Origin: a virus
Taxonomy: Duplodnaviria; Caudoviricetes
Length of the DNA: 61,203 nt
Strand: one strand, 5' to 3'
Virus record (IMG/VR): IMGVR_UViG_3300042564_004703
Coordinates: 1 to 61,203 of that record
Numbering within the stretch: position 1 is the stretch's first letter; each line of letters starts with the position of its first letter. Below the pieces are notes generated by a model that saw only the letters and a list, made by a program, of their open reading frames with translations, had not been told where the DNA came from and searched no databases. A program made the position numbers and the translations under genes. This document shows, one piece after another, positions 8,904-61,203 of this stretch.

Positions 8904-9170
8904 TTAAAAATCTACGTTTAAATCATCAATTTTAAGTTTATCATTTTCTTTTCCAAAATATAATTCTAATTCTTTTTCAAATGGCTTATTAACCTCATCA
9001 AGTTTATCTGCAATAGCTCTTAAAGTATATGCTGACCAACAACCTGATAAATCAGATTTCTCCCAAAAATAATAAGAACCGTTAGAATCTAATTGAAAAC
9101 TTCCTATTTCTTTACCTGTTATAGTTTGAACAGAATAACTTTTATTTAATTTCTCTATTTTAATTTCCAT
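8904..9170 (-). CDS. Hypothetical protein
   Basis: GSYYFWE..GCWSAYTLRAIADKLDEVN motif seen in phage proteins. Confidence 0.7.
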   Translation of the reverse strand: MEIKIEKLNKSYSVQTITGKEIGSFQLDSNGSYYFWEKSDLSGCWSAYTLRAIADKLDEVNKPFEKELELYFGKENDKLKIDDLNVDF

Positions 9171-9303
9171 AATCTGTAGTAAAAGTTATCTATAAATATT
9201 TGTGGGTCGTTTAACTTTTCGCTCTCTGATTTGTAATATTCCTAAAGCCAATTATTATTCAGTTTTTGAGAGTTTCTCTGTTTTATGTAACCGTCTTTGT
9301 AAT

Positions 9304-9807
9304 TCAAAATCTAAATATTCTAAATGTTATTCCTGCGCCTACTTGTGGTGTTGCTATTACGGTAGGTAGTGGTGTTGTTATTAATGAAAGTCCATATCCC
9401 GCATAAAGACTGAAAGAAAATTTTTTAGCTGCTTTTCGTTTTAACTTTTCATTTTCTTCTGTTAAAATTGCATTATTTGTTTCCTCCTCTTTAATAAGAG
9501 TGTCAGATTTAACTATTACATCTTTTGCTTTTGGAAGTAATGCTTCAGCTTTAAGTCTTAGAAAACGTTCATTATCTAATAACTTTTTATAATATTCTAC
9601 TCCACCAATTGCAATCTTATTAACTTTTTTTAAGTCTTTATTTTCGGCATTAATTTCTTCACATTCATAAATTCTATGTAACACCCACTCTCCTGCTTCA
9701 TAAGAAACTTTTACACTATCTTTTGATATTTCTTGACTTATACAAAGATTCGATGCTATCAGAGATAACAGAAGAATAAACATTTGTTGTGGCTTTAATT
9801 TTTTCAT
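9304..9807 (-). CDS. Exported coiled-coil protein with C-terminal beta-hairpin; putative outer spanin component
   Basis: Signal-peptide-like N-terminus, coiled coil, amphipathic beta strands ending in Phe (FSLYAGYG...VGAGITFRIFRF); overlaps upstream TM/coiled-coil gene. Confidence 0.5.
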   Translation of the reverse strand: MKKLKPQQMFILLLSLIASNLCISQEISKDSVKVSYEAGEWVLHRIYECEEINAENKDLKKVNKIAIGGVEYYKKLLDNERFLRLKAEALLPKAKDVIVKSDTLIKEEETNNAILTEENEKLKRKAAKKFSFSLYAGYGLSLITTPLPTVIATPQVGAGITFRIFRF

Positions 9808-10183
9808 TTGTTTTAATTTTAATTGTTTTATAAATTATTTCTGTTGGTCTTGGAGTGCTTAGTAAGCTGTCGTTTTGAAGTATTAAATAATCATTCACTA
9901 AATTAATACTGTCTCTACTTTTTTCATAGTCGTTTTCGGCATCCTTTAGTTGTTGCTTGGCTATTATAAGCTCTGTTTTTGCATTAGTTAAGTCTCTGTT
10001 TGTTGGCTGTTTAGTTTTTAAGATTAGCATAATACTTAAAATTAGCGAAATAGTAAAAAATAATATTGCACTATTTTTCCAGGTTATGTATTTTTTAATT
10101 TCCATTTGTTTTAATAATTTTTGTAATCCGTTTTTATTTTTAATTTTATCTGAAAATAAAATACTAATTAAATGGCTGTCCAT
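9716..10183 (-). CDS. Putative inner-membrane spanin (likely start 10105, MEIKKY)
   Basis: Single N-terminal TM helix followed by periplasmic coiled coil; overlaps partner gene. Confidence 0.5.
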   Translation of the reverse strand: MDSHLISILFSDKIKNKNGLQKLLKQMEIKKYITWKNSAILFFTISLILSIMLILKTKQPTNRDLTNAKTELIIAKQQLKDAENDYEKSRDSINLVNDYLILQNDSLLSTPRPTEIIYKTIKIKTNEKIKATTNVYSSVISDSIESLYKSRNIKR

Positions 10184-10215
10184 TTTAATTTTTATAAGTT
10201 ACGTTTTAAAGACTT

Positions 10216-10413
10216 TCACGTCTTATTATATTCCTTTTCTATTATTTGTCTGCATGTTTTACTTCGTTCCGTTTGTTTTTTCGGCTTTTCAGCAACTCCA
10301 CAGTATAGTAGTAAAAAGACAGAAAGAGGAAAAATAACACCGAAAAATATTCGGAATAATTTGATACTCCACAACTCTTCGGTATACCCAACTCTCGATT
10401 GATTAATTGTCAT
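10216..10413 (-). CDS. Small membrane protein, cargo of truncated terminal cassette c0
   Basis: 65 aa with a TM segment; starts 64 bp after the GTT core of site A on the minus strand. Confidence 0.55.
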   Translation of the reverse strand: MTINQSRVGYTEELWSIKLFRIFFGVIFPLSVFLLLYCGVAEKPKKQTERSKTCRQIIEKEYNKT

Positions 10414-10470
10414 TGTTTAGTTTATTTCTAAACACTGCCTGTCATTTCAGCACTTACGCCATACAATGAC

Positions 10471-10603
10471 ACACAACGTTTTGTGGCTTTGCGAGGTTTG
10501 GGGAAAGCCTTCCCAATTTTTTGATTTATCAATATTTTTCCAAGTACAAAACAGAGTTTCAGTTTATCACTTCCGCCCAAATCTTGCAAAACCGCTGTTA
10601 GCC
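10471..10603 (-). repeat. attC-like site A
   Basis: Plus strand ACACAAC-GTTTTGTGGCTTTGCGAGGTTTGGG...CCCAAATCTTGCAAAACCGCT-GTTAGCC; ~20-bp imperfect inverted arms. Confidence 0.85.
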
Positions 10604-10677
10604 GTTCGGTTTTATTCTTTTGCTAATTTAGTTTCTTTTTTATATTTTAGCAAATTAATTAAATATTCTTATATACT

Positions 10678-11079
10678 ATGTCTGACCAACCTTTAGTTCC
10701 ATTCAAAGCTTACTTTGAGTTTCAATATAATGATAACTTAAATAAGTTATACCCTGAACATTTAGAAACTTATTTACAAAGGTCTTCCGATGATGCTCAA
10801 ACAGTTAAAACAGCAACTTTTTTAAAAAACTACTTAACAGGTGCAAAACTTCCAATATTTTTAAAAGACAGAAAAGTAGATTTTGATTATCACACTCGTC
10901 ACTCTATTTATCCTGAAAGTTTTTCGGTTACAAATTTAAGTCAGTCTGTTGAATTTAAGGTTAAGTCTGATGAAGTTACTGTTATACAAATAGTAAAAGA
11001 TGATATTACTTTTAGAACCTCAAGTGGTGAGGTAAGGACTGAAACTTTAACAGACCAAATTAAATTATTTAGTCTTTAG
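10678..11079 (+). CDS. Cassette c1 inward gene, hypothetical (133 aa)
   Basis: ORF opposite to phage transcription with its own AT-rich promoter-like leader inside the cassette end. Confidence 0.7.
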   Translation: MSDQPLVPFKAYFEFQYNDNLNKLYPEHLETYLQRSSDDAQTVKTATFLKNYLTGAKLPIFLKDRKVDFDYHTRHSIYPESFSVTNLSQSVEFKVKSDEVTVIQIVKDDITFRTSSGEVRTETLTDQIKLFSL

Positions 11080-11285
11080 ATTTTTCTGCTTTGAGATAAC
11101 TTTTCATCTGCACTTTCTAAAATTTCAAGTAAGTCTTTGTAAGTTGTCTCAAATCTTTTTCCTTCTTTTTCGGTACTGATAAGTATTTCTACTTTATCTT
11201 TTTCGTCTGCAATTGTTCTATTCATATTTTTGTCTGTGAATAGAAAGAACTCTACTTTGTTTTTTGTTAAATAACTTTCTGTCAT
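11076..11285 (-). CDS. Cassette c1 sense gene, hypothetical (69 aa)
   Basis: ATG 44 bp inside the cassette end after an A-rich leader; converges on partner with a 4-bp overlap. Confidence 0.6.
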   Translation of the reverse strand: MTESYLTKNKVEFFLFTDKNMNRTIADEKDKVEILISTEKEGKRFETTYKDLLEILESADEKLSQSRKI

Positions 11286-11322
11286 TTTTTATGTCTTTTT
11301 TAGCACGTTTTGCCAAACTGAC

Positions 11323-11449
11323 GGCTAACGTTTCGCAGCTACACGAGGTGCAAGGCTTCGTGACTGCTGGGTTTATATTTAATTTTATGTTTTTCTTGCG
11401 GTTTTGCAATTCCACTAAATCCTTGCATCTTGTGTAACTGCTGTTGTGC
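11323..11449 (-). repeat. attC-like site B
   Basis: GGCTAAC-GTTTCGCAGCTACACGAGGTGCAAGG...CCTTGCATCTTGTGTAACTGCT-GTTGTGC. Confidence 0.85.
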
Positions 11450-11548
11450 AATCGGCTTTTTGTTCACTTCGTATTTTCGACTATACTTTTTTCACCGCAA
11501 TTTAATAATATTTTACTATTTTCGCATTTCACTTTAAACAATTTTATT

Positions 11549-12031
11549 ATGGATTTTACTCAAGAAATACTTCCTTATATAAATTCTGCTATTTTAGTTT
11601 TTGGAGGTTGGTTTTTAAAACGTATTATTAATGACAAAAATTCCCAAATAGAAACCCTAACTAAAAACAGTAATTCGACTACAGAACTTTTAAATTCTAC
11701 TAAAGTGTTAATAGAAATGTATGATATACAAAAATTTAAAGAACACTTAGATTTTACAATTAATACTTTAGAGGAACGTCATAAAGTTGAAATTGAAAAA
11801 GTTTTTAAACTTTCAGAGCAAAATGTTAAAGATAAGATATTAGAGTTGGCTTCTCCTTGGTTAATTAAGTATCAAGAGCTATTAAACTATCAATTCCATT
11901 TTCTACTTCAAATGTCAGAGGAAGATTTAGAAAAAGTCCTTAAATCGCTTCCTGAAAATAAAGAGTTTATACAATATCAAATTAAAGCTATAAAGGAAAC
12001 TGGTAATCTTAAAGAACTCCCAAAGAACTGA
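11549..12031 (+). CDS. Cassette c2 inward gene: N-terminal TM plus helical domain (160 aa from MDFTQ)
   Basis: In-frame ATG at 11549 (the track start lies in the repeat); TM segment NSAILVFGGWFL. Confidence 0.7.
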   Translation: MDFTQEILPYINSAILVFGGWFLKRIINDKNSQIETLTKNSNSTTELLNSTKVLIEMYDIQKFKEHLDFTINTLEERHKVEIEKVFKLSEQNVKDKILELASPWLIKYQELLNYQFHFLLQMSEEDLEKVLKSLPENKEFIQYQIKAIKETGNLKELPKN

Positions 12032-12221
12032 TTTTGTCAACTCTGTTTCTATAATACATTTTTTTCATTTCAATATAATTTTCCATTGTTGTTACACCAA
12101 GAGCTACAAAATATAAATGCTCTTTGTCAAAAGTATCAAGAAAATATTTTTCACAATCACAATCTAATTTTTTAGATTGTAAAAACTTTATAAGTTTAGT
12201 ACACAACCATTTTTTTAACAT
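12009..12221 (-). CDS. Cassette c2 sense gene, hypothetical (70 aa)
   Basis: A-rich leader inside cassette end; 23-bp convergent overlap. Confidence 0.6.
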   Translation of the reverse strand: MLKKWLCTKLIKFLQSKKLDCDCEKYFLDTFDKEHLYFVALGVTTMENYIEMKKMYYRNRVDKISSLGVL

Positions 12222-12279
12222 TTTTCGCTTAGTTTTTTTCTAAACATTGTGTTTTCAGCGTTAGTTCTGTTAAGCTGTT

Positions 12280-12416
12280 GCACAACGTTTTGTGGCTTCA
12301 AGAAGTGGCGTAACTTCAAGACTGCCGTTAATAAATAATTACTGTTTTTTAGTTTTTACGCCGAAACTTTACTGATAAATCCTAAGCCTAGCCATTTCTT
12401 GAAACCACTGTTAGCA
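12280..12416 (-). repeat. attC-like site C
   Basis: GCACAAC-GTTTTGTGGCTTCAAGAAGTGGC...GCCATTTCTTGAAACCACT-GTTAGCA. Confidence 0.85.
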
Positions 12417-12491
12417 AATCGGCTTTCTTTTTTCTTCCACAATTTAGTTATTTTTTCTTACTTTTGGTAAATCATTTTAAAACTTTAAATT

Positions 12492-12710
12492 ATGAACTAT
12501 CAAGAAGCTTTAGGTTATTTAGATTTAAACCTTTCAAAATTTCAAGAGTTATACCCAAATTCTATTTTTATTATCTCGCCATACTTATATAAAGATTTAG
12601 AAAGATTTATAAAGGATATAAATGAAAAAGGTATAAATAATGTAGATGTTAAAGATTATTCTTCTGATGGTCGTTTTGGTGTTTACGAATGGCGTTATAG
12701 AGCGTTGTAG
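12492..12710 (+). CDS. Cassette c3 inward gene, hypothetical (72 aa)
   Basis: Preceded by consensus -7 box TACTTTTG. Confidence 0.65.
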   Translation: MNYQEALGYLDLNLSKFQELYPNSIFIISPYLYKDLERFIKDINEKGINNVDVKDYSSDGRFGVYEWRYRAL

Positions 12711-12972
12711 GATTAGTTGTATATCTGTTTATATTTAAAGATACTTTTACAATATCTGAATTTTCTATTTTAAAAGTTGGAAGAACTAAATATTTATTTT
12801 TAAATTCTAAAATAGTGTCGGCTATTTTATTCTCTAACTCTTTTTCTAATTCATCGTATTGAGATTCTGTGTAAGTTTCACTATCAGAAGCTAAATAGTT
12901 AATTCCTTCCTCGTTTCCTTTGTCAAAATTTTCTGAATATTCTTTTAAAATGTTTAAATCTTTTTCTGTCAT
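12649..12972 (-). CDS. Cassette c3 sense gene, hypothetical (from MTEKDL)
   Basis: ATG at 12972 with AAAAATG context; 62-bp convergent overlap. Confidence 0.65.
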   Translation of the reverse strand: MTEKDLNILKEYSENFDKGNEEGINYLASDSETYTESQYDELEKELENKIADTILEFKNKYLVLPTFKIENSDIVKVSLNINRYTTNPTTLYNAIRKHQNDHQKNNL

Positions 12973-13053
12973 TTTTGTTACTTGTTTTTTTAGTAACATT
13001 ATCAAACTGCTATTTTCCGTTTTAGTTTTTTGCGGATTTTTGGTTAAGCTGTT

Positions 13054-13188
13054 TGCTAACGTTTTGCTACTAGGCGATGTAGCGGGTTAAATATTCACTG
13101 ACTTTTAAGGTTCGCCTAAACTTTAAAAGTATAAAATTTCCATTCAGTTAAGCCTGTTGCCGCTATATTCGCTTAGTAGCTGTTGTGT
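13054..13188 (-). repeat. attC-like site D
   Basis: TGCTAAC-GTTTTGCTACTAGGCGATGTAGCGG...CCGCTATATTCGCTTAGTAGCT-GTTGTGT. Confidence 0.85.
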
Positions 13189-13249
13189 GTTCGTTGTTTT
13201 TTATTTTATCAAATAAATTTTTTCTATCTTCGGCAAAAATTAATTTATT

Positions 13250-13672
13250 ATGACTTATGAAAAAATTTACGAAGAATTAAAAGATAACATAAAAAAGTTA
13301 CTGATTAATATTGCTTTCTTATTCCCTTTTTGGGCGTTGGCTATTTTTATCACAAAACCCTCTTTTTTAAAAAACCCTATTCATATTCAATTTATTTTGA
13401 CTTTCTGTTTAAGTTTTATGTGGTTATTAATTTATTTCTTAATTGCTGTTTTTATTGCAAGACTTTTCATAAAAAATAATCCATACATTATTCTTGAAAT
13501 TGGTAATCTTTTAGGTATTATGTCGCTTTGTGTATTTATAAATATAGCATATCACTATAATCAATCTTTAACAGATTTATTACAAAACAGTTTTTTATTC
13601 TCTACTTTCTTTTTAGCATTGGTAGCCATTCTAAATTTTGCCAACCATATTCAGAAGTCCAAAAAAGTATAA
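13250..13672 (+). CDS. Cassette c4 inward gene, 4-TM membrane protein
   Basis: Four hydrophobic segments; TATCTTCG -7-like box upstream. Confidence 0.7.
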   Translation: MTYEKIYEELKDNIKKLLINIAFLFPFWALAIFITKPSFLKNPIHIQFILTFCLSFMWLLIYFLIAVFIARLFIKNNPYIILEIGNLLGIMSLCVFINIAYHYNQSLTDLLQNSFLFSTFFLALVAILNFANHIQKSKKV

Positions 13673-13853
13673 AACCTATACACATTATTGGTATCCCAAT
13701 ATATGCTGATTTAATAAATAGTTCCATAGAAAAAAAGTTTAGAGTTTCTCTATCTACTATTTCTATTTTAAAAGGGTTTTCTCTTTTAAAGATTATTACA
13801 CCCATATAAAACATCCATAAAAACAAACACAGTAAAATTAAGTTGATTATCAT
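13602..13853 (-). CDS. Cassette c4 sense gene, 2-TM membrane protein
   Basis: Two hydrophobic segments; 71-bp convergent overlap. Confidence 0.6.
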   Translation of the reverse strand: MIINLILLCLFLWMFYMGVIIFKRENPFKIEIVDRETLNFFSMELFIKSAYIGIPIMCIGFILFWTSEYGWQNLEWLPMLKRK

Positions 13854-13915
13854 TTTTCGTTTAGTTTTTTTCTAAACACTACCTATCATTTTCAGCACTT
13901 ACGCCATACAATAAC

Positions 13916-14044
13916 AGCCAACGTTTTGCAGCTACAAGAAGTTGCGTACTTCATTCACTGCTGATTATTAATTAGTTATTTTTTTGTTTGGGGTGTTTCC
14001 GAATACACAGCAATTCTAGCAATTTATTGTAGGTGGTGTTATGG
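13916..14044 (-). repeat. attC-like site E (somewhat degenerate)
   Basis: AGCCAAC-GTTTTGCAGCTACAAGAAGTTGC...GCAATTTATTGTAGGTGGT-GTTATGG; abuts the groES stop codon. Confidence 0.75.
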
Positions 14045-14275
14045 TTAAATCCACCTCAAAATCTGCTTGTCAATGACATAGCTTTCTCCATTAACAAGGA
14101 AGTCTCCTGTAACTAAAAGACTATCTCCAACTTTAACTTGCCTTTTAGAACCCTGTTTAAAATCTTCACCTATCCCTAAAACTATAACTACTCCTTTGAA
14201 TTCTCCCTTAGAGTCCATAGCAGTCCTTTTTTCTAAGACTCTTTCTACTAATAATCTATCCCCAAATATATTCAT
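14045..14275 (-). CDS. groES: Co-chaperonin GroES-like protein
   Basis: GDRLLVER...GVVIVLGIG...VKVGDSLLV match the cpn10 pattern. Confidence 0.7.
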   Translation of the reverse strand: MNIFGDRLLVERVLEKRTAMDSKGEFKGVVIVLGIGEDFKQGSKRQVKVGDSLLVTGDFLVNGESYVIDKQILRWI

Positions 14276-14412
14276 CTTTTTGACTGTTTAATGAGTTATG
14301 TTGATTAATAAACTCCTCTTTATCTAAGACCCAATCTCCTGTCATATTTTCATAGATTTCAAATAGGTCTTCTGATTTTTTTAGTCTGTTGTAAGCGGTT
14401 TTATATGCTGTT

Positions 14413-14628
14413 TTATTCGATTTCATTTATTTTCTGTTCTATTACTTCTAAATCTTTATCTGTTAATTCAAATATTTTTTTAGGTAGTATTATTTCAAAA
14501 CCTTTACCATTCTTTTTAACTTTTACTGCGTCGACATTTAACCATTGATTCTCATCTTCATTAAAATACTTTGTCTTGCAAAAGCTAATAAAAGAACACC
14601 CCGTATTACTTTTTATCTGATTCAACAT
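14413..14628 (-). CDS. Hypothetical protein
   Basis: 71 aa, operon-packed. Confidence 0.6.
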   Translation of the reverse strand: MLNQIKSNTGCSFISFCKTKYFNEDENQWLNVDAVKVKKNGKGFEIILPKKIFELTDKDLEVIEQKINEIE

Positions 14629-15067
14629 TTACTTGTAGATTTAATTCTTCTTTATCTTGCATTTCTTTTTGAAGAGTTTCAATTAAAACTGTTCTTCCTG
14701 CCTCCGCTTCATTGTGATGTAGTTCCACCATACGTCTTTTAAACTCTAAAAGATTAAGTAAATTTCTAAATTCAATTTGTGCATCTTCAGGATAGTTTGA
14801 AGTAAAACTGAAACACTCTACTAAATTACTTGGAGTAAAAGTTTTATTTGCGTCAAAAATATAAGTTAATTCTTTTTTCTGTTCCTCTGTTGGGTTTTCT
14901 ACAGGCTCTCCATCTTTGTCAATCCATTTATAATGCTTTGGAAGGCAATGTCCTGAAAGCGTGTTTAAATATGTGTCAACTGCATTCTCACTTAATAAGA
15001 AGTCAATACCTTGTATTTCTATTTTTTGTTCAGGTCTAAATGAACTGTTTTCTATTGTTTTTTTCAT
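14606..15067 (-). CDS. Hypothetical protein
   Basis: 153 aa ORF. Confidence 0.75.
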   Translation of the reverse strand: MKKTIENSSFRPEQKIEIQGIDFLLSENAVDTYLNTLSGHCLPKHYKWIDKDGEPVENPTEEQKKELTYIFDANKTFTPSNLVECFSFTSNYPEDAQIEFRNLLNLLEFKRRMVELHHNEAEAGRTVLIETLQKEMQDKEELNLQVNVESDKK

Positions 15068-15081
15068 GTTTTGTTTTTATA

Positions 15082-15118
15082 AACTCCACCCACTCTTATT
15101 GTTGAGTGGGCTTTGTTT
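15082..15118 (-). terminator. Hairpin/terminator downstream of SSB
   Basis: CCCACTC-N9-GAGTGGG stem. Confidence 0.5.
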
Positions 15119-15159
15119 GGAATTTTTAATTAATTATAAGCGTCTGATTATCAACGAGT

Positions 15160-15921
15160 TTAAAAAGGAAGGTCGTCGTTGGCAGGGTTATTTGGGTTAT
15201 AATTTGTCGCAGGCTCGAATGCCTCTTTTGCTGTTGCTGTAGGTACTGCGTTCTTAGGTACCTCCGCTTTTGGTTGTGGCGTAGAAGTCTGTTCTCCTTG
15301 AACCCACTGTAATCTATCAGTTTCTTTTTTAACCAAATCTAATAAATATTCATTTTTAGCTTCTTGTGAAACAGCAGTCGGTTTATTCTTTCCAAGTTTA
15401 TTTACTTTCCACTCTAATGCAGGAATATCTCCATCTACAAACTCCTTTGTTTCATTCCCATCTGTGTCTGTTACTTTTTTAAAATACGCATTAGTTAATT
15501 TTGATTTTAATTTTTCTTCCCCAACAGTTATAGACATACCAATTGAAGCGTACTGCTTATCTTTTGGTATAAAATTATAACCTCTAACTTTTACGTTGTC
15601 TCCTTTATTTAAAAGTGGTAGTAATTTAATTAAGCTCTCTGCATAGGTATCTACATTATCACCTTGGTCTGAAACTGCTACAGGTAAGTAATAAACATTA
15701 TCTCCATCTTTAACATTCATAGAAATTTGAGTACCGAATTTTGACTCATAAAGAGACACTGACTCTAATACACCACTAACTCCTTCTTTGTAATACTTTC
15801 TATAAGATTTATTACCTTTTGTTGAAGTATGCTCTTCATACCCCTCTTTTGGTTCTTTTGAGTAATCAAAGAATAACCCTGAACCGAATTCTAGTTGCAA
15901 AAAATTTTTTTCAATTGCCAT
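15160..15921 (-). CDS. ssb: Single-stranded DNA-binding protein
   Basis: Beta-rich core, Pro-rich linker and acidic C-terminal tip DDLPF. Confidence 0.75.
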   Translation of the reverse strand: MAIEKNFLQLEFGSGLFFDYSKEPKEGYEEHTSTKGNKSYRKYYKEGVSGVLESVSLYESKFGTQISMNVKDGDNVYYLPVAVSDQGDNVDTYAESLIKLLPLLNKGDNVKVRGYNFIPKDKQYASIGMSITVGEEKLKSKLTNAYFKKVTDTDGNETKEFVDGDIPALEWKVNKLGKNKPTAVSQEAKNEYLLDLVKKETDRLQWVQGEQTSTPQPKAEVPKNAVPTATAKEAFEPATNYNPNNPANDDLPF

Positions 15922-15959
15922 TTTCCTAACTTTATTTAATTATTATTTATTAATTTGAG

Positions 15960-16469
15960 TTAATTTTCAAGTAACTCCTCTTGTTTATAATCTATTTGAT
16001 TTTCAGGTCGTGAGAACAGCTCTTCTAAATTTACTGTTTTCTTTCCTGTTATTTTATTTTTTAGAACGTAGTTCCTACATTGGCGCAAAAAAGATTTAAA
16101 AGACAGATGTTTTTTCTCAATCCAACTCATATTTATATATTCCAAATATGTATCAATTTCCCAAACTTCCTCAGCTACCGTATACATCATATTACTCTTA
16201 GTATATAAATGAGTACCACCATCTGTTGAAGATACCCAACTATCTAAATTATCAATAGGCATTGTTAAAGGAACTGTAATATAGTCAACATCATCTTCCT
16301 CTAATACTACTCTACCGTCTTCATCTGTTTCTACTTCATCTTTGGGAGTTGGTAATCCTAAAGCTTCATAGTTTATTCTTGGCTCATCTCTATTTGTGGC
16401 TTTTTGTATTTTTTCTTCTCCTGCTTCATTAGGAATACTAATAATACAATTTAAATATAGTAATTTCAT
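15960..16469 (-). CDS. Hypothetical protein
   Basis: 169 aa; own promoter TTGCA...TACATTTG. Confidence 0.75.
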   Translation of the reverse strand: MKLLYLNCIISIPNEAGEEKIQKATNRDEPRINYEALGLPTPKDEVETDEDGRVVLEEDDVDYITVPLTMPIDNLDSWVSSTDGGTHLYTKSNMMYTVAEEVWEIDTYLEYINMSWIEKKHLSFKSFLRQCRNYVLKNKITGKKTVNLEELFSRPENQIDYKQEELLEN

Positions 16470-16531
16470 AGTACAAATGTAGTGATTATTTTTTAATTAT
16501 GCAAATAAAATGTAATCTTTTTATAAATTAT

Positions 16532-16666
16532 TTTTAACGTTTCGTGGCTTTATGAAGTTGCTGATTAGCAATCACTTAACCTTTGATTAATAATTATTTT
16601 TTACAAGTACACACTTGCCTTTTGTTTATTTACCACAGCAGTAATTTTATAAAACCACCGTTGTAT
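16532..16666 (-). repeat. Solo attC-like site F
   Basis: TTTTAAC-GTTTCGTGGCTTTATGAAGTTGCTG...CAGTAATTTTATAAAACCACC-GTTGTAT; same architecture as sites A-E. Confidence 0.75.
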
Positions 16667-16710
16667 TATTTCTTCTGCAAATATACAACATTAATTTATA
16701 TTGTGCAAAT

Positions 16711-17607
16711 TTATTTTGGATTATTTTTTAATTGGTCTAGTATCATTGAAGCATTACATAAAACAGCAGATAAATGGTCTTTATAAGTTTCTTCATCTTC
16801 TTCTATTGGCTGTATCATCTTTTTTACGTGGCGAAATAAAGCCCATTCTAAAGATTTTACATCGATAGGTTTTTTCATATTACCTTTCGGGTACTTATGC
16901 TTATTAGCTGTAAATCGTTCTGCCATTAAATCAAGTATTCCTAAATTAATTTCAGAGTAATCCACTTTACCGTTTGTTTCTTTTACTCCTTCTGGTCTTA
17001 TGCTAAAAGAGTTAGGTCTATCAAATTTTCCTGTTAATGTATCTACCCAATCTGTTAGTAATAATGAAAAATCTAATGGTTCGTATGGTGGTAGTTCTTC
17101 TTTATGTATTTCACTGTCTTTTGGGAATACTAAATTTTCTTCAGTTTTATTTTCTTTTGCGGAATTTTTATTAAATTCTTCGATTATTTCATTTATTTTT
17201 TCTCTCTGTTCAGGATTTGTTTCAAGGGTAATTGTTGTAGTTGTATATTCAGGAAAATTTTTTGTTTTTGTTTCTTTTTCCGCCGAATTTGTCTGCTCCA
17301 AAACTTCATCTAAAAAATGTGGAGAAACTTTTGCTTGTGGTGGTTTATTTATACCTTCCAAATCTCCTACTATTTTTAAGTTTTCTTCTTGCTCTATAGC
17401 TTCATCTAAATACGTCATAGTTTTTCCTGCTTTATGTCTTGTACTTAATCCTGCTGTTTTGTTTTTTTCGCCGTCAAAATAATTAGAAAACGGTTGTTTA
17501 CTAACATCCCAACCAGATACAGTAGTAACCCAATCACCAGCTATGTTAAAAAACTCATCTCTTGTTACTTCTTTACCACCTACTATGTATCTAAAGTTTT
17601 CTTGCAT
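16711..17607 (-). CDS. DUF5664 / dATP-dGTP diphosphohydrolase-domain protein with long N-terminal extension
   Basis: C-terminal GVKETNGKVDYS...KY...ALFRH...DHLSAVLCNA motif. Confidence 0.7.
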   Translation of the reverse strand: MQENFRYIVGGKEVTRDEFFNIAGDWVTTVSGWDVSKQPFSNYFDGEKNKTAGLSTRHKAGKTMTYLDEAIEQEENLKIVGDLEGINKPPQAKVSPHFLDEVLEQTNSAEKETKTKNFPEYTTTTITLETNPEQREKINEIIEEFNKNSAKENKTEENLVFPKDSEIHKEELPPYEPLDFSLLLTDWVDTLTGKFDRPNSFSIRPEGVKETNGKVDYSEINLGILDLMAERFTANKHKYPKGNMKKPIDVKSLEWALFRHVKKMIQPIEEDEETYKDHLSAVLCNASMILDQLKNNPK

Positions 17608-19242: not shown

Positions 19243-19275
19243 TGCAAATATACGAAATTATTTTTAATTATCCAA
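19243..19275 (-). promoter_or_regulatory. Promoter for the RNA-rich leader and HisRS unit
   Basis: Minus strand TTG...TATATTTG. Confidence 0.6.
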
Positions 19276-19276
19276 A

Positions 19277-19927
19277 TTATTTTCCATAAATATAATCTAA
19301 AATTTCTCCAACTAAACCACTTCTATGATTTTCCTTTAGTTTTATCCATTTAATACCTTCTATATTTTTTGATAATTCTATTGCAAAATCTAATCCTGTA
19401 TAAGTTTCATTAGTGTCCCTCTGAGATGAATCCCCGTTAATTACTATTTTTCCAGTTGTTCCTAGTCTTGTTAATATAGCCTCCATTTCCCCTTTTGTTA
19501 AATTTTGAGCCTCTTCAACAATTAAAATATCATCAATAGTTTTACCTCTAATAAACTGTATAGGTAGCGCTTGTATTTTTCCATTTTTAACAAGCTCGTC
19601 TATTTTTAATTTATCCGTACACTTATATAAATTTTCTACAAGGGCTTCCATATAAGGATTGAATTTTTCTTTCAAATCTCCTGGTAAAAATCCTAAACTT
19701 TTTCCTACTTCAATAGCACTTCTAGCAACTAATACTTTTTCACATTGTTTTGTGTTTAGGAAATCTAATGCTGTAATTGCTCCAACTAAACTTTTTCCAG
19801 ACCCAGCTCTTCCAGTTACAATTACAATTTGATTATTTAAAATTAAAGCTTTAGCTTCTTTTTGTTCTTCATTAAGTTGTACATTATACTTAATTTCACT
19901 CTTTCTAACTCTGTTTGGTTCTTTCAT
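19277..19927 (-). CDS. phoH: PhoH-family ATPase
   Basis: GRAGSGKS Walker A, LGFLPGDLKEK, FIRGKT, EEAQN, LTRLG, GDSSQ, HRS; likely start MKEPNR. Confidence 0.92.
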   Translation of the reverse strand: MKEPNRVRKSEIKYNVQLNEEQKEAKALILNNQIVIVTGRAGSGKSLVGAITALDFLNTKQCEKVLVARSAIEVGKSLGFLPGDLKEKFNPYMEALVENLYKCTDKLKIDELVKNGKIQALPIQFIRGKTIDDILIVEEAQNLTKGEMEAILTRLGTTGKIVINGDSSQRDTNETYTGLDFAIELSKNIEGIKWIKLKENHRSGLVGEILDYIYGK

Positions 19928-21757: not shown

Positions 21758-22744
21758 TTATAACTGCTGTTTTAAAAATTCAAAATCTTCTGGGTTTGCT
21801 TTTAAGTATTCTGCAAATTTATCTGTTCCTTGTACTTTCTTTTCTTCGCCGAATCTGTCAGGAAATGTAATCCAACCTGCTCCGCCTACTTTTGCAACTT
21901 CTGTTTCACAAAAAATTTGTGCGCACTCATCTGCTTCTTTAAAACCGCCATCATAATAAAAATTTAAAGTAATTACTTCTTTTTTATCAAAAGCTCCTGC
22001 TTTACTTTTACGGATTCTAATATCTAATTTGTGACCTACGACATTTTTATTTTCATCTCTAATTAAATCTTTTTTAGTAAAATCTAAATGAGTAAAAGGC
22101 ATATATTTGTTAAATTGTCCTCCAGGTAAAACTTTGCTATCACCGTGCATTACTCCAGGGTTTTCTCTCCACTGATTTAATATAATTAAAGCTGTTCCTC
22201 TTCTAGCACAATTTGCATTAATGATTGGTAATCTTGTGCCCAGTTTCTTTGCTTCAACACCTATAGAATACTCCTCAGCAGATTTTGCTTCCACGGCAAC
22301 AGAATAAAAAGCTTTAATAGAATCTACAATAATTCCACAAATATCTTCACTTTGAGAAAAAGCTTCTGCTGTATCTAACATGTTTTCAAGAACAGAGTCT
22401 TTATAAACAATCAGTCTGTTTTTATCTAATTCAAATCTTTCTAAATGGTTGTCTGTTATTGTTTGCTCACCATCAAGCATAACAACTGTTTTATTTGGGT
22501 ATTTTGTTTGAAGTTCTCTTGCCATAATTAAAGCAATACTACTTTTTCCACTTCCCTCCCAGCCAGTTAACAATGTCATAGCTCCTAATGGAACTACTTT
22601 ATTGTCCATGTAATAATCTAAATAAGCACTTCCAGAAGAACTGAAATCTAGATTTAGTGTCTCAATTTCTGATACTTTTTTTACTTGGTCTTGTTCTGCT
22701 TTTCCTTTGTTTAATTTTTTAAGTGTTTCTTCTAATGTGGGCAT
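21758..22744 (-). CDS. recA: RecA/UvsX-like recombinase
   Basis: GWEGSGKS Walker A, DGEQ, IIVDSI Walker B, LNQWR, PGG. Confidence 0.9.
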   Translation of the reverse strand: MPTLEETLKKLNKGKAEQDQVKKVSEIETLNLDFSSSGSAYLDYYMDNKVVPLGAMTLLTGWEGSGKSSIALIMARELQTKYPNKTVVMLDGEQTITDNHLERFELDKNRLIVYKDSVLENMLDTAEAFSQSEDICGIIVDSIKAFYSVAVEAKSAEEYSIGVEAKKLGTRLPIINANCARRGTALIILNQWRENPGVMHGDSKVLPGGQFNKYMPFTHLDFTKKDLIRDENKNVVGHKLDIRIRKSKAGAFDKKEVITLNFYYDGGFKEADECAQIFCETEVAKVGGAGWITFPDRFGEEKKVQGTDKFAEYLKANPEDFEFLKQQL

Positions 22745-24146: not shown

Positions 24147-24209
24147 TTTTTAATTTTTTATTATTGCAATAATACGAAATTTTTTTGAATTATGCAAGTT
24201 TTTCGTGAA

Positions 24210-24590
24210 CTATTTTAAAATTTCTATTATTTGCTGTTTTAGTTTTTCTTGCGCCGAATTAAAGTTAAAATTGTCTCGCATCCAACTCAAATATTTCTTA
24301 TCTTCTATAAAGGCTTGTTGAACTGTTTTGTCTTTTAACTTACCAACAGGAATTATTTCGTCAAAAACTCTAGGTTCTTTTTCTAATATTCCTTTTTCCC
24401 TTGGTACGTATGCTTTTTTATTTCTTTTTATATAATCTATTAAAGCAGTTCTTAATTCTTCTTTATCCGTTTCTCCTGCCGCCCATTTCACTTCGTTATC
24501 TTCGTCTAAATAATAATGTGCATCTTTTACCCACCAATGACTACTTTTATCTTTAAACTGCTTTATAAGAATTTCTGAAGATTTTTTCAT
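24210..24590 (-). CDS. Protein with C-terminal DUF3820/ExoX-C-like motif
   Basis: IPVGKLKDKTV...DKKYLSWMRDN. Confidence 0.6.
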   Translation of the reverse strand: MKKSSEILIKQFKDKSSHWWVKDAHYYLDEDNEVKWAAGETDKEELRTALIDYIKRNKKAYVPREKGILEKEPRVFDEIIPVGKLKDKTVQQAFIEDKKYLSWMRDNFNFNSAQEKLKQQIIEILK

Positions 24591-24739
24591 AAATTTCGAG
24601 AACTTTCATAGTTAAAGTATTGATTTTATTGATGTTTTTTATTAGTTGTACATATATAATAGTTAGCAAACAGCTTTGTTGGAATGGAAAAAAGAAACTA
24701 CCAAGAAAGTTTATTGTTATCGTTATTAAAAAAGTAACA

Positions 24740-24979
24740 ATGGAAGAAGTAATAAAACTAAAATTTAAAAGATGTCCACCGTTTGAAAAGGAAAAGCACT
24801 TAAATTTTACTTCACAACAAGCAAGATTTTTCAAAAAAATTGAAAATTATTGTGAGTCATCAACCGAAAAACAAATAGAAGTGTTAATAGATATTATTAA
24901 ACCTTATTATACAAGACAATCAAAAGAGTCTTTAGGCTTTCCTTTAAAGTATAATTTACTTAATGTCTCTACGAATTAA
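24740..24979 (+). CDS. Cassette cA sense gene (79 aa from MEEVIK)
   Basis: In-frame ATG 78 bp after the GTT core; converges on partner with a 24-bp overlap. Confidence 0.6.
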   Translation: MEEVIKLKFKRCPPFEKEKHLNFTSQQARFFKKIENYCESSTEKQIEVLIDIIKPYYTRQSKESLGFPLKYNLLNVSTN

Positions 24980-25354
24980 TGTGTGTTCGTAGTCGTAAAG
25001 GTCTCGATGTGAATAGTTTCTGATATTACCATTTTCATCTTTACATTTGTATAATACCTCATTTGAAATTTCATTGTCAATAAAAATATCAATTATTTCG
25101 TACCATTGTGGTTTTACTTTACGTTGATTAGAATGAAAATACACTTCTTGACCAACCCTAAACCAAGCTCCTGGAAATACCTCATTTGTTAGAAAAAGAT
25201 TATTTTCCATATCTCTGTAAGTTACTCCATCTTGGTGCGTAAAATCATAAACAGGTATATTATGCGAGGTTTTGTATGTGTTAACTTTAGTTATTGTAAC
25301 TAAACTATTATCTAAACCCCAATAAACTTTTTGAAACAAATTGAATCTTGGCAT
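24956..25354 (-). CDS. Cassette cA inward gene with tandem small beta-barrel-like repeats
   Basis: Two similar halves (FNLFQKVY.. and FRVGQEVY..); own -7 box TAAGTTTG. Confidence 0.7.
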   Translation of the reverse strand: MPRFNLFQKVYWGLDNSLVTITKVNTYKTSHNIPVYDFTHQDGVTYRDMENNLFLTNEVFPGAWFRVGQEVYFHSNQRKVKPQWYEIIDIFIDNEISNEVLYKCKDENGNIRNYSHRDLYDYEHTLIRRDIK

Positions 25355-25421: not shown

Positions 25422-25554
25422 TGCTAACAGCGGTTTTGTGCAAGTGGCAGGTTAGTGAGTGTTTGAAAGCACTCGGCACGAATAAAAAACAGTAATAATC
25501 GGCAAAGTTCAGGCTCAATCGTGCCACCTGACACAAAGCCACAAAACGTTATAT
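25422..25554 (+). repeat. attC-like site H
   Basis: TGCTAAC-AGCGGTTTTGTGCAAGTGGCA...TGCCACCTGACACAAAGCCACAAAAC-GTTATAT. Confidence 0.85.
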
Positions 25555-25626: not shown

Positions 25627-26304
25627 TTAAAATAAGGTGTTTTCAATATATTTATCTTTAACCTTATAACTTGCATCATATCTTTGGTTATCTCCTTTTG
25701 GGTATGGTTCAATCTTAAATTTCAATTTCTTTAGCATATCATTTTTTTGTCGTTTATCTCCTATAAAATAAAAATATCTATGCTTCCTATCTCTTTCAGC
25801 AAAATACAAATCATCTCCAAATTTTTCTTTTAGCCATTTACCTCTGTCTTTTTGCCCTCTACTCATATCAAAAATTGTAGATGTATGCAAGTGTTCCATC
25901 CCTCTTACTTTATAATCACTAACTTTAGCTGACAATCCCGTATAAATCCAATTTGTAGCTTGATAAATATAACCGTTATGTCCTTTTGATGTATCGGCAT
26001 AACTAACAATCACATTGGGTTTTGGGATATGATTTAAACATTTTGATAAGAACCAACTTAATATATTTTTCTCTAATCCTTCATCAACACAAAGCCTATT
26101 TAATTCAATAACATTATAATCAGAATATACACTTCTAATTGCGTTACTTGCAGGAGTTCCAAAGCTACATATACCTTTGATTTCATTATCTAAAATCAAA
26201 CCAAATAAAAATGTAATTGGTGGCATACGTTTAGCATAGTGCTTGTTTAAAATCCACTCCTTACCTTTTTCTTTAGGTATTATTTCTACTTTATAATTTA
26301 GCAT
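25627..26304 (-). CDS. Mom-like GNAT DNA-modification enzyme (cassette cB cargo)
   Basis: KHY...SFG...ELNRLC...VSYAD...GH.GYIYQATNWIYTG...KHRY match the Mu Mom family. Confidence 0.8.
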   Translation of the reverse strand: MLNYKVEIIPKEKGKEWILNKHYAKRMPPITFLFGLILDNEIKGICSFGTPASNAIRSVYSDYNVIELNRLCVDEGLEKNILSWFLSKCLNHIPKPNVIVSYADTSKGHNGYIYQATNWIYTGLSAKVSDYKVRGMEHLHTSTIFDMSRGQKDRGKWLKEKFGDDLYFAERDRKHRYFYFIGDKRQKNDMLKKLKFKIEPYPKGDNQRYDASYKVKDKYIENTLF

Positions 26305-28405: not shown

Positions 28406-28891
28406 TTTATAAAATGCGAAACCCCCAGTAACAAAAAATGAACCTAATTGTTAGAGCGGGTTCATCATTGCTAAAGAGGGTTTACTTCTTTATATTATTT
28501 TTAGTTTGTTTAGTATGCTCTAACCTATACTATAAACTCCGATATGTAAAATTAAATCTAACTCTGTAAGTTAGAAGCGTATCTTTAGGTAATACGTTTG
28601 TGAAAATTAATTTCAACCAAGTCCTTTACTATTTTAGTAATGACTAATTTCCGCTGATAAAAAATAAAGCCGTTAAAAAGATACTCGGATAAACATATCA
28701 ACAGCTTTATAGTAAAGAAGTTCCGATAATTATTTTTAAAAGTAACGACACAATAGAATACCTCTCTGTCCAAACGTCCAAAACGTTTTACTTATTAATT
28801 TTTAAACTTCTGTTCCGCCACCTAAAGCAGAAAAAGCAATCATATCATTTTTCATACCGCAAATATATAACATTATTTTCATGTATGCAAG

Positions 28892-60548: not shown

Positions 60549-61203
60549 TATAATTACCGACATAAAATCTGAATTAAAATCTTATTCTGAGGCAGGATTA
60601 ATAGATGAAATAACATTAAGACTTCACTTAATAAACGAGTTAAAACGTTTTGGTGGAAATATAATGGATGTCTATCCTGTCATTTTAGAGGTCAAAAATA
60701 GTAGAACAAAACTTCCTGAAAATTTCTTTTCTTTATACAGGGCAGTAAGAATTTATCCAAAAGGATATAGCTGTGAAGAAGATTGTACTTTAGATGAAAT
60801 AAACTTTGGACAGACTTTTTTTAGGGTAAGAAAAGAAGCCTCTACTACTTGGGACAATTTCTCAGGAAAATTTACAGAAGGAGATTACACAGAAGTGACA
60901 GAAAAGGTTTACATACAAAATAAAAATGTAAATATTCACTATGGAAATCAAACACTTTTACAATTAGTACAAGGTTTTGATAAATCTAAACTAGACCCTA
61001 AATGTGAAAATTTAAATATTCGACAAAGCCCTTATAAAATAAGTATAATAAATGAAACACTACAAACTAATTTTAGTAAAGGATTTATTTGTTTGTGGTA
61101 TCAGGGACTAAGAGTAGAAGAAGAAACAGATGACGTAATACTCCCTGAAGACCCAAATGCAAGACTATATGAATTTCTAATGTACACAGGTAAAGCAAAA
61201 GTA
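60532..61203 (+). CDS. Tail ring/tubular protein, truncated at window end
   Basis: Open frame from MITISNII to the end of the window; KLPENF motif. Confidence 0.6.
   Translation, partial: MITISNIITDIKSELKSYSEAGLIDEITLRLHLINELKRFGGNIMDVYPVILEVKNSRTKLPENFFSLYRAVRIYPKGYSCEEDCTLDEINFGQTFFRVRKEASTTWDNFSGKFTEGDYTEVTEKVYIQNKNVNIHYGNQTLLQLVQGFDKSKLDPKCENLNIRQSPYKISIINETLQTNFSKGFICLWYQGLRVEEETDDVILPEDPNARLYEFLMYTGKAKV

Follow-up and report, generated by a model that had tools for sequence, protein, structure and literature searches.

Convergent two-gene units among integron-like hairpins in a Caudoviricetes virus contig

Integron cassettes are usually pictured as units of one promoterless gene that is read from one side. 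What is carried by the five units that lie among long hairpins in the IMG/VR virus contig IMGVR_UViG_3300042564_004703 (Duplodnaviria; Caudoviricetes), a linear record of 61,203 bp with an estimated completeness of 44% and a G+C content of ~29%? Each unit of this stretch, hereafter the window at its full length, contains two open reading frames (ORFs) that converge and overlap at their 3' ends. Four units (c1 to c4) constitute array 1, and a fifth (cA) belongs to array 2. We propose that the five units are genuine two-gene cassettes and belong to an integron-like system with a wide distribution among Bacteroidota and the phages of these bacteria, and we assign a probability of about 0.6 to this reading, in which the expression of the two partners would be coupled and the cassettes would be mobilised by a recombinase.

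Are both ORFs of each pair real genes? All ten are found at the coordinates given in the initial annotation, with convergent overlaps of 4 bp (c1), 23 bp (c2), 62 bp (c3), 71 bp (c4) and 24 bp (cA). Their codon usage was evaluated with a log-odds score that was trained on 26 long ORFs of the window and compared with a null set from wrong frames of the same genes, 93 stretches that run for at least 50 codons without a stop, using the non-overlapping parts wherever the overlap was substantial. Unit c1 consists of c1+ (10678–11079, plus strand, 133 aa; score 0.306, reached by 2.2% of the null) and c1- (11076–11285, minus strand, 69 aa; 0.502, 0%). Unit c2 pairs c2+ (11549–12031, plus strand, 160 aa, with a hydrophobic stretch at the N terminus; 0.216, 3.2%) with c2- (12009–12221, minus strand, 70 aa; 0.272, 2.2%). 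In unit c3, c3+ (12492–12710, plus strand, 72 aa) faces the acidic c3- (12649–12972, minus strand, 107 aa), and unit c4 combines c4+ (13250–13672, plus strand, 140 aa) with c4- (13602–13853, minus strand, 83 aa), both of which are hydrophobic and judged by eye to be membrane proteins. Array 2 contributes cA- (24956–25354, minus strand, 132 aa; 0.222, 3.2%) and its partner cA+ (24740–24979, plus strand, 79 aa; 0.193, 4.3%). Eight of the ten ORFs thus exhibit codon usage in the coding range, with scores that 0–4.3% of the null stretches reach. The start codons of c2+, c3- and cA+ are internal ATG codons within longer frames that begin with TTG. When each of the five inter-hairpin segments was shuffled 2000 times with its dinucleotide composition preserved, no shuffle generated ORFs at least as long on both strands. 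Neither partner appears to be a shadow ORF, and both ORFs of a pair are predicted to encode proteins. No terminator-like site was detected between the partners, as had been noted before: the three sites returned by a consensus scan are all located at 10340–10516, and none lies between any pair.

Conservation supports the same view for part of the set. Searches for relatives covered c1+, c1-, c3-, cA+, c4+ and cA-. They identified 24 relatives of c3- (66–100% identity, most of 102–107 aa, one from a named Flavobacterium), 22 of c1+ at E ≤ 0.001, 16 of c1- (76–100% identity), three of cA+ (84–99% identity) and one homologue of c4+ (locus L147, 30% identity, E 6e-12). This last match was the sole one when the ORFs were compared by tblastn with 238 fetched loci, and scans of viral contigs with c1+, cA-, the c3- alignment and the c1+ alignment returned no relatives, in a collection from which the window's own record may be missing. 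The initial annotation had named an untranslated, unconserved shadow ORF in each pair as the outcome that would overturn it; this objection fails for c1, c3 and cA+, for which relatives were found. The case is clearest for c3. In a DNA comparison with its counterpart in locus L239, the ratio of non-synonymous to synonymous substitution rates (dN/dS) amounts to 0.18 for c3+ and 0.13 for c3- in the non-overlapping parts, and therefore both c3 partners are under purifying selection as proteins.

What defines the ends of the units? Array 1 is divided by hairpins on the plus strand that were recognised by a core motif, their fold and their alignment with the family: R0 (10475–10599), R1 (11327–11445), R2 (12284–12412) and R3 (13058–13184, with a z-score of -4.3 for its fold as single-stranded DNA (ssDNA)). 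R0, which was aligned with 99 relatives, displays the succession xxxAAC, GTTTTG, imperfect stem, loop, stem and CTGTTA. The last hairpin of array 1, R4 (13920–14040, plus strand), has a degenerate stem, and its left flank is 80–89% identical to that of R0 (repeats D8 and D9). The hairpin of array 2 (25426–25550, minus strand), identified by the same three features, points in the opposite direction. The core AACGTTTYG occurs nine times in the window against 1.01 expected copies, and none of 100 shuffles reached nine. Six copies head long imperfect hairpins (plus strand: 10475, 11327, 12284, 13058 and 16536; minus strand: 25550), and the copy at 13920 heads the degenerate one. A gapped pattern of the two conserved ends is present in at least 117 IMG/VR stretches and at least 120 genome contigs, the latter almost all from Bacteroidota. 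The hairpins are ~126 nt long, and the consensus fold of 100 diverse copies contains 23 pairs, 16 of them with compensatory changes; next to the pairing of TAACG with YGTTA come a bulge of 4 nt and a short stem, and a 1-nt bulge then separates this short stem from the long, covarying one. Rfam yielded no relevant family, either at the gathering threshold over the window or at E ≤ 10 over 10300–14100, and a common hairpin of the family had no match in a set of 50,697 GenBank phage records.

The cassette boundary is revealed by the flanks of the cores. Reverse complementarity links the nine bases that start at one hairpin's GTT to the nine that end in the AAC of the hairpin after it. This complementarity is 9/9 for c1 and c2 and, by direct reading, 9/9 for c3 and cA and 7/9 for c4. 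Across all loci, 20 of 44 cassettes match at five or more of the six variable positions, versus 5.7% of permuted partners, and the hairpin's own upstream flank matches in 5 of 44. A single set of matching, complementary core flanks thus surrounds both convergent genes. The cores are also where homology to other loci breaks off; homology to L022 and L083 starts at 25533–25536, inside the core that holds the AAC of the array 2 hairpin.

Do the pairs travel together? In an activated-sludge contig (L239), the 3' arm of a hairpin is succeeded by the TACTTTTG box that also precedes c3+, then by a c3+ homologue, a convergent c3- homologue and the next hairpin. The two homologues are each 74% identical to the window proteins and overlap by 50 nt, and the core flanks of this contig are unlike those of the window yet again complementary to each other. 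In a Flavobacterium chromosome (L147), the c4+ homologue lies directly behind a hairpin; a hydrophobic ORF of 54 aa converges on it, and the two overlap by 74 nt in the relative frame seen in c4. Two further tail-to-tail pairs with the same leaders as in the window are found in Flavobacterium piscinae (L227). Contigs of four sequencing runs were also placed on 9000–17000. Run X13 covers c1 (10575–11333, depth 37), c3 (12489–13004, depth 31) and c4 (13155–13928, depth 26) with one contig each, and it switches to a different hairpin immediately past the AACGTTT of c1; the backbone bins at 9267–10334 and 14073–16475 have a depth of 0–0.8 and c2 one of 0.25–3.7, and uncovered parts in this run and in X15 are not evidence of absence. 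Contig joints with sides of 20–30 letters were set aside as rearrangement evidence, since they may stem from other hairpins of the family. The pairs appear to be inherited together as blocks that recur in other genomic contexts. The expectation that homologues stay paired is thus borne out for c3 (L239) and c4 (L147), and it does not extend to distant c1+ relatives, which occur singly. The claim that the cassettes are two-faced, that is, that each unit is cassette-like and carries two real convergent genes inherited together, is upheld by the matched flanks and by the recurrence in L239, L147 and X13.

The two genes of a unit occupy distinct positions, here called ports. Port B, which c1+ to c4+ and cA- occupy, is located directly behind the hairpin, and its -7 box of the Bacteroidota type is accompanied by an AT-rich leader. 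Port A, at the far end, is the position of c1- to c4- and cA+; it has no recognisable promoter, and its short, A-rich leader often includes a mini-hairpin. In array 1, port A points in the same direction as the surrounding minus-strand operon. The initial annotation had attributed the -7-like boxes to the gene that runs inward from the opposite end, an assignment that has to be reversed: the boxes TACTTTTG (12459–12466), TATCTTCG (13225–13232) and TAAGTTTG (25385–25378, minus strand) sit 25–33 nt upstream of c3+, c4+ and cA-, respectively, all of which start behind the GTT core. A further box, TATTTTCG, is found at -32 relative to c2+, and no TAnnTT[TC][GA] box occurs within 120 nt upstream of c1-, c2-, c3-, c4- or cA+. 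A motif of the port-A leader gave 17 matches in IMG/VR, none of which adjoins a hairpin, and a strict regular expression for this leader found just the two window copies among 310 cores.

This layout suggests how the two partners could influence each other. Port-A genes would be read by through-transcription of the array, with the nearest minus-strand promoter-like repeat at ~16680 and others near 19250 and 24170, and port-B genes would fire head-on from their own promoters. The plus-strand transcript of port B may be ended by the long hairpin and its T-rich run and would be antisense to the partner gene. With no terminator separating the partners, the transcripts would collide, and the expression of one partner would dampen that of the other by collision or antisense pairing.

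Which enzyme could move the cassettes? The predicted system comprises the ~126-nt attC-like hairpins, a small Xer/IntI-like tyrosine recombinase and a hairpin-less attI-like site beside the recombinase gene. In 9 of 117 viral loci among the matches listed, a 265-aa tyrosine recombinase is encoded directly downstream of the last cassette in the same reading direction, and in L147 the recombinase gene reads toward the array. The enzyme carries the Pfam domains Phage_integrase and SAM_4. Its best NCBIfam model is NF040815, 'site-specific tyrosine recombinase/integron integrase' (180–192 bits, cut-off 220); it reaches 140–176 bits in two stretches with the integron-integrase model TIGR02249 (cut-off 265) and 95–118 bits with NF011946 (cut-off 435). 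The recombinases of the related loci therefore remain below the integron-integrase cut-offs, and the window has no Phage_integrase match. The junction between the last cassette and the recombinase gene lacks a hairpin; in seven of the nine viral loci, it is formed by a conserved TAAC and the adjoining TATTATATAT and precedes the recombinase start by ~45 nt.

The same junction is present in array 2, where the end of cA (TGCTAAC) is joined to TATTATATAT at 24652–24668 on the minus strand. The segment at 24571–24665 is 88% identical to locus L059. In the adjoining frame (24553–24609, minus strand), the first six residues, MKVLEI, match the L059 recombinase, and a stop ends the frame after 18 codons. 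An ORF of 126 aa comes next (24210–24590); it is unrelated to the recombinase and has a weak ExoX-like_C match. Array 2 appears to be the remnant of a recombinase platform, composed of a Mom gene, a hairpin, cA, an attI-like site and a broken recombinase gene, because the attI-like junction and the MKVLEI start are present and the frame is broken. The cassettes may then be moved by a recombinase that a related phage or the host supplies, with this phage keeping the remnant within the available stretch; the presence of the same cassettes in other contexts is an indirect sign of such excision and insertion.

How common is the two-faced layout? We classified 210 distinct hairpins, each with at least 700 nt on both sides, from the matches listed and the window. 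At viral hairpins among these matches, the genes on both sides run in the sense of the hairpin in 79 of 110 cases; often, 12–15 nt separate the upstream stop codon from TAAC, and the following gene starts within the loop or ~35 nt after GTTA. In genome contigs among the matches listed, the genes are antisense to the hairpin in 66 of 94 cases (37 on both sides and 29 called on the downstream side only), as in classical integrons, where the gene precedes its site. Where two two-faced cassettes adjoin, the starts diverge around the hairpin between them; divergent starts are found at 3 of 110 hairpins in viral loci and 6 of 94 in genome contigs among the matches listed and at two window hairpins. 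The two-faced layout, in which both gene positions of the cassette frame are filled, is therefore a rare variant, yet it recurs.

Several observations weigh against the proposal of genuine two-gene cassettes. Divergent starts are rare, as just described. The codon scores of c4+ and c4- are ambiguous (reached by 19–25% of the null), and both proteins are strongly hydrophobic. cA- is without relatives in a close-relative scan that was confined to viral contigs, the c2 pair, at which no homology search was aimed, has no relatives on record, and the 54-aa ORF of L147 shares no detectable sequence similarity with c4-. The c1+ family gene is found in 2 of 401 Flavobacterium genomes, in neither case with a hairpin or a convergent partner; at least c1+ therefore does not need its partner. 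The hairpin body of R0 recurs in L227 with other flanks and other cargo, so that a given cargo may belong with either side of a hairpin. As ssDNA, the two hairpin strands fold about equally well. The 61-kb record, with its estimated completeness of 44%, encodes no recombinase and retains the 18-codon remnant only. An excised circle, an empty site or an inversion was not directly observed, and no inverted cassette copy was seen. The sole match in an RNA library consists of contigs over c1 in the wastewater run X15, which may represent DNA carry-over and do not show transcription.

Could the pairing reflect the proteins rather than the cassette? In one alternative, which we regard as rather unlikely, the two proteins of a cassette form a functional pair that act on each other as toxin and antitoxin or as effector and immunity protein, such that the loss of one would be harmful and convergence would be secondary. 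Each pair has one larger (107–160 aa) and one smaller (69–83 aa) member, sizes that are usual for toxin-antitoxin or effector-immunity pairs, and the c3 pair stays together at 74% identity and the c4-like pair at 30%. The closest match of the c1+ profile among solved structures is annotated as 'Immunity protein' (4q7o), at a non-significant E of 0.06. Integron cassettes whose two ORFs encode a toxin-antitoxin system have been described (PMC8618304), and immunity genes are found in the related rAID-1 arrays (10.1101/471110). However, Pfam at the curated cut-off, PHROGs and PADLOC assign no family to any of the ten proteins, and c1+ relatives exist without a partner. The arrangement also speaks against a toxin-antitoxin cassette of type II, since known type II pairs are co-transcribed and the genes here are convergent rather than co-directional. 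Other searches on these proteins were equally silent: the c3- profile had no match among solved structures, and ESM Atlas gave no usable lead for cA- and c2+ (scores 0.84–0.89). In the 401 Flavobacterium genomes, the c3- profile produced one marginal match inside a 1007-aa frame, which was judged spurious.

Two further alternatives dispense with cassettes as two-gene units. The hairpins could be regulatory punctuation, as divergent control regions or terminators, between ordinary convergent pairs of a hyperplastic region that is shuffled by homologous recombination, a process that has been proposed to act between promoter-stem-loop repeats in T4-type phages. Conserved leaders and -7 boxes do flank the hairpin, most viral hairpins lie between co-directional genes with the next start codon sometimes in the loop, the R0 body has other flanks in L227, and there is no Rfam family to decide the matter. 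We nevertheless consider this alternative unlikely because regulation alone does not explain why the core flanks on either side of a cassette, including that of L239, co-vary to stay complementary. It is also at odds with the recombinase genes directly downstream of arrays and their hairpin-less junction with a common TAAC core, and the opposite gene orientations at genomic and viral hairpins imply that an RNA element would be transcribed in opposite senses. Least probable by far is the view that the left-arm backbone includes the minus-strand ORFs and that hairpin, promoter and plus-strand gene alone were inserted, as a moron, so that no two-gene cassette would exist. The minus-strand ORFs are indeed oriented like all flanking arm genes and have no promoter boxes of their own. 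However, c1-, c3- and c4- are found in X13 in the contigs of their plus-strand partners at the same high depth with the backbone nearly absent, c3- accompanies c3+ between other hairpins in L239, the partner overlaps of 4–71 bp leave no room for a junction, and the complementary core flanks enclose both genes.

Within the reading of genuine two-gene cassettes, a more far-reaching idea can be put forward tentatively and with considerable doubt. The two-faced cassette might be a distinct standardised format: its bidirectional frame, in which each strand has an expression port, would carry mutually exclusive cargos and operate as a transcription-direction-sensing switch in a phage-borne integron-like system. 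Chromosomal arrays fill the port toward the hairpin and phage arrays the port away from it, and therefore a two-port cassette could deliver a working gene in either orientation of its array to local transcription. This phage carries arrays in both orientations. If the idea is true, the head-on layout would make the two cargos mutually exclusive in a phage-borne system with a minimal Xer-type recombinase.

How does this system compare with known ones? As in integrons, of which the sedentary chromosomal ones with two-ORF or self-promoted cassettes come closest, small and mostly unannotatable genes are arrayed between imperfect hairpins whose fixed end letters are only AAC and GTT. The hairpins are bulged, with covarying stems and AAC/GTT ends, and resemble attC sites in structure only; complementary flanks face each other across a cassette; and the tyrosine recombinase adjoins a hairpin-less site, here a candidate attI. 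In contrast to integrons, the recombinase is small (265 aa) and falls below the cut-offs of NF040815 and TIGR02249, the core AACGTTTYG is conserved in addition, the genes of phage arrays follow the hairpin and read toward the recombinase gene, and both orientations are filled within one cassette with a tail-to-tail overlap. Integron cassettes with two ORFs, with toxin-antitoxin systems or with their own promoter have been described (PMC8618304).

A second relative is rAID-1 (recombinase-associated acquired interbacterial defence), which was described on gut Bacteroidales chromosomes with co-oriented genes (Ross et al. 2019, 10.1101/471110). It is defined there by an XerD-like recombinase that is at least 44% identical to BF9343_RS08045 and is located 5' of at least two co-oriented low-GC genes (10.1101/471110). 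The hairpin-bearing loci likewise combine an XerD-like tyrosine recombinase with an array of short low-GC genes, mostly of no known function, and the chromosomal arrays in Flavobacterium and relatives have a rAID-1-like layout. The systems differ in that the accessible part of the report mentions neither phage copies nor convergent pairs (10.1101/471110) and that the window has no recombinase; the likeness was established from the description of rAID-1. Among ten scanned proteins of chromosomal cargo, three have a Pfam family (WG_beta_rep, Esterase and RVT_1) and seven have none, with no immunity family. One such cassette (locus L134, 5710–7221) encodes a 504-aa protein with a reverse-transcriptase domain, and others encode a WG-repeat protein and an esterase.

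Related elements have been reported in phages as well. In a screen of 10,705 GenBank phage genomes, CALINs (attC clusters that lack an integrase), attC-like sites with cassettes that often encode DNA methyltransferases, were found in virulent phages, including a phage of Polaribacter (Flavobacteriaceae) (Qi et al. 2023, PMC9892861). We considered the Polaribacter phage P12002L of that study as a carrier of the present hairpin family and rejected it: it has no copy of the core motif, and a looser regular expression gave one unrelated match without a hairpin. The literature searched contains no description of this hairpin family in phages or of cassettes with convergent overlapping pairs. What the present reading would add is a second, self-promoted gene that faces the first in a whole set of cassettes and a pair that has been kept together in phage and chromosome and in different habitats. 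Should the two genes gate each other, they would constitute a compact natural either/or expression design that travels with the cargo. The hairpin and the small recombinase would also link the accessory-gene regions of phages, often with DNA methyltransferases, to chromosomal rAID-1 arrays. The hairpin and the recombinase are found in hundreds of phage and genome contigs of Bacteroidota, and therefore phages and hosts may draw on a shared cassette pool.

Some hairpins outside the two-gene units have features of their own. A solitary hairpin on the plus strand (16536–16672), recognised by core motif and fold, is followed ~16 nt past its GTTGTAT by the complementary ATACAAC (16536–16700 in all). 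It could be an empty cassette, or the match may be due to chance, as the ATACAAC lies inside a promoter-like repeat. Two other core copies (28779–28787 on the minus strand and 60644–60652 on the plus strand) have no canonical hairpin in the predicted folds and are probably chance or decayed sites. At many viral loci (L003, L005, L012, L022, L095 and L097), the start codon of the downstream gene, which in L003 is a DNA methyltransferase gene, lies inside the A-rich loop of the hairpin, and the 3' stem arm and GTTA core are translated there in frames that vary by locus. The hairpin was considered as a peptide-coding or RNA element, given the ATG in many loops, and this was rejected because frames differ among loci and gene orientation differs between viral and genomic contigs. 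The suggestion that the G-T-paired strand folds better was likewise abandoned; ssDNA folding revealed no clear strand difference, and no strand claim is made.

The left side of array 1 may show traces of a further unit. A possible extra ORF at 10216–10413 (65 aa, minus strand) does not look coding by codon score. The left flank of R0 (10216–10447), which includes the first codons of this ORF, shares 80% identity with the leader of c4- and the beginning of that gene (13843–13891; repeat D8), and the ORF may be a decayed cassette end. In the same area, a contig of the X15 RNA library has a depth of 41.6 at ~10068–10334, with a loose end that resembles a tRNA 3' end (GGTTCAAATCC); the contig probably derives from an unrelated organism with a short common stretch. 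A tRNA scan found no tRNA gene.

Near-identical sequences occur in at least 14 lake or freshwater metagenome runs, and blastn of 9000–16000 against GenBank phages gave no match. The likely host range is Flavobacterium and other Bacteroidota, because the genome contigs that carry the hairpin family are almost all from Bacteroidota. The genes of the left arm (1–28,400) are on the minus strand and the structural genes of the right arm on the plus strand. A repeat composed of TTTG, a spacer and TATATTTG (as in the copy at 16676) is found on the minus strand at 16676–16714, 19243–19281 and 24165–24203 (repeats D2, D5 and D7) and also at 21797–21821; it resembles the -33/-7 promoter of Bacteroidota and is a probable mark of the left-arm transcription units. 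The functions that can be named in this arm include PhoH, a UvsX-like recombinase and a Mom-family protein. The Mom-family DNA-modification gene (25627–26304) lies directly upstream of array 2, and methyltransferases are cargo in other loci of the hairpin family. The cassettes are thus found amid DNA-modification genes, which may serve against host restriction.

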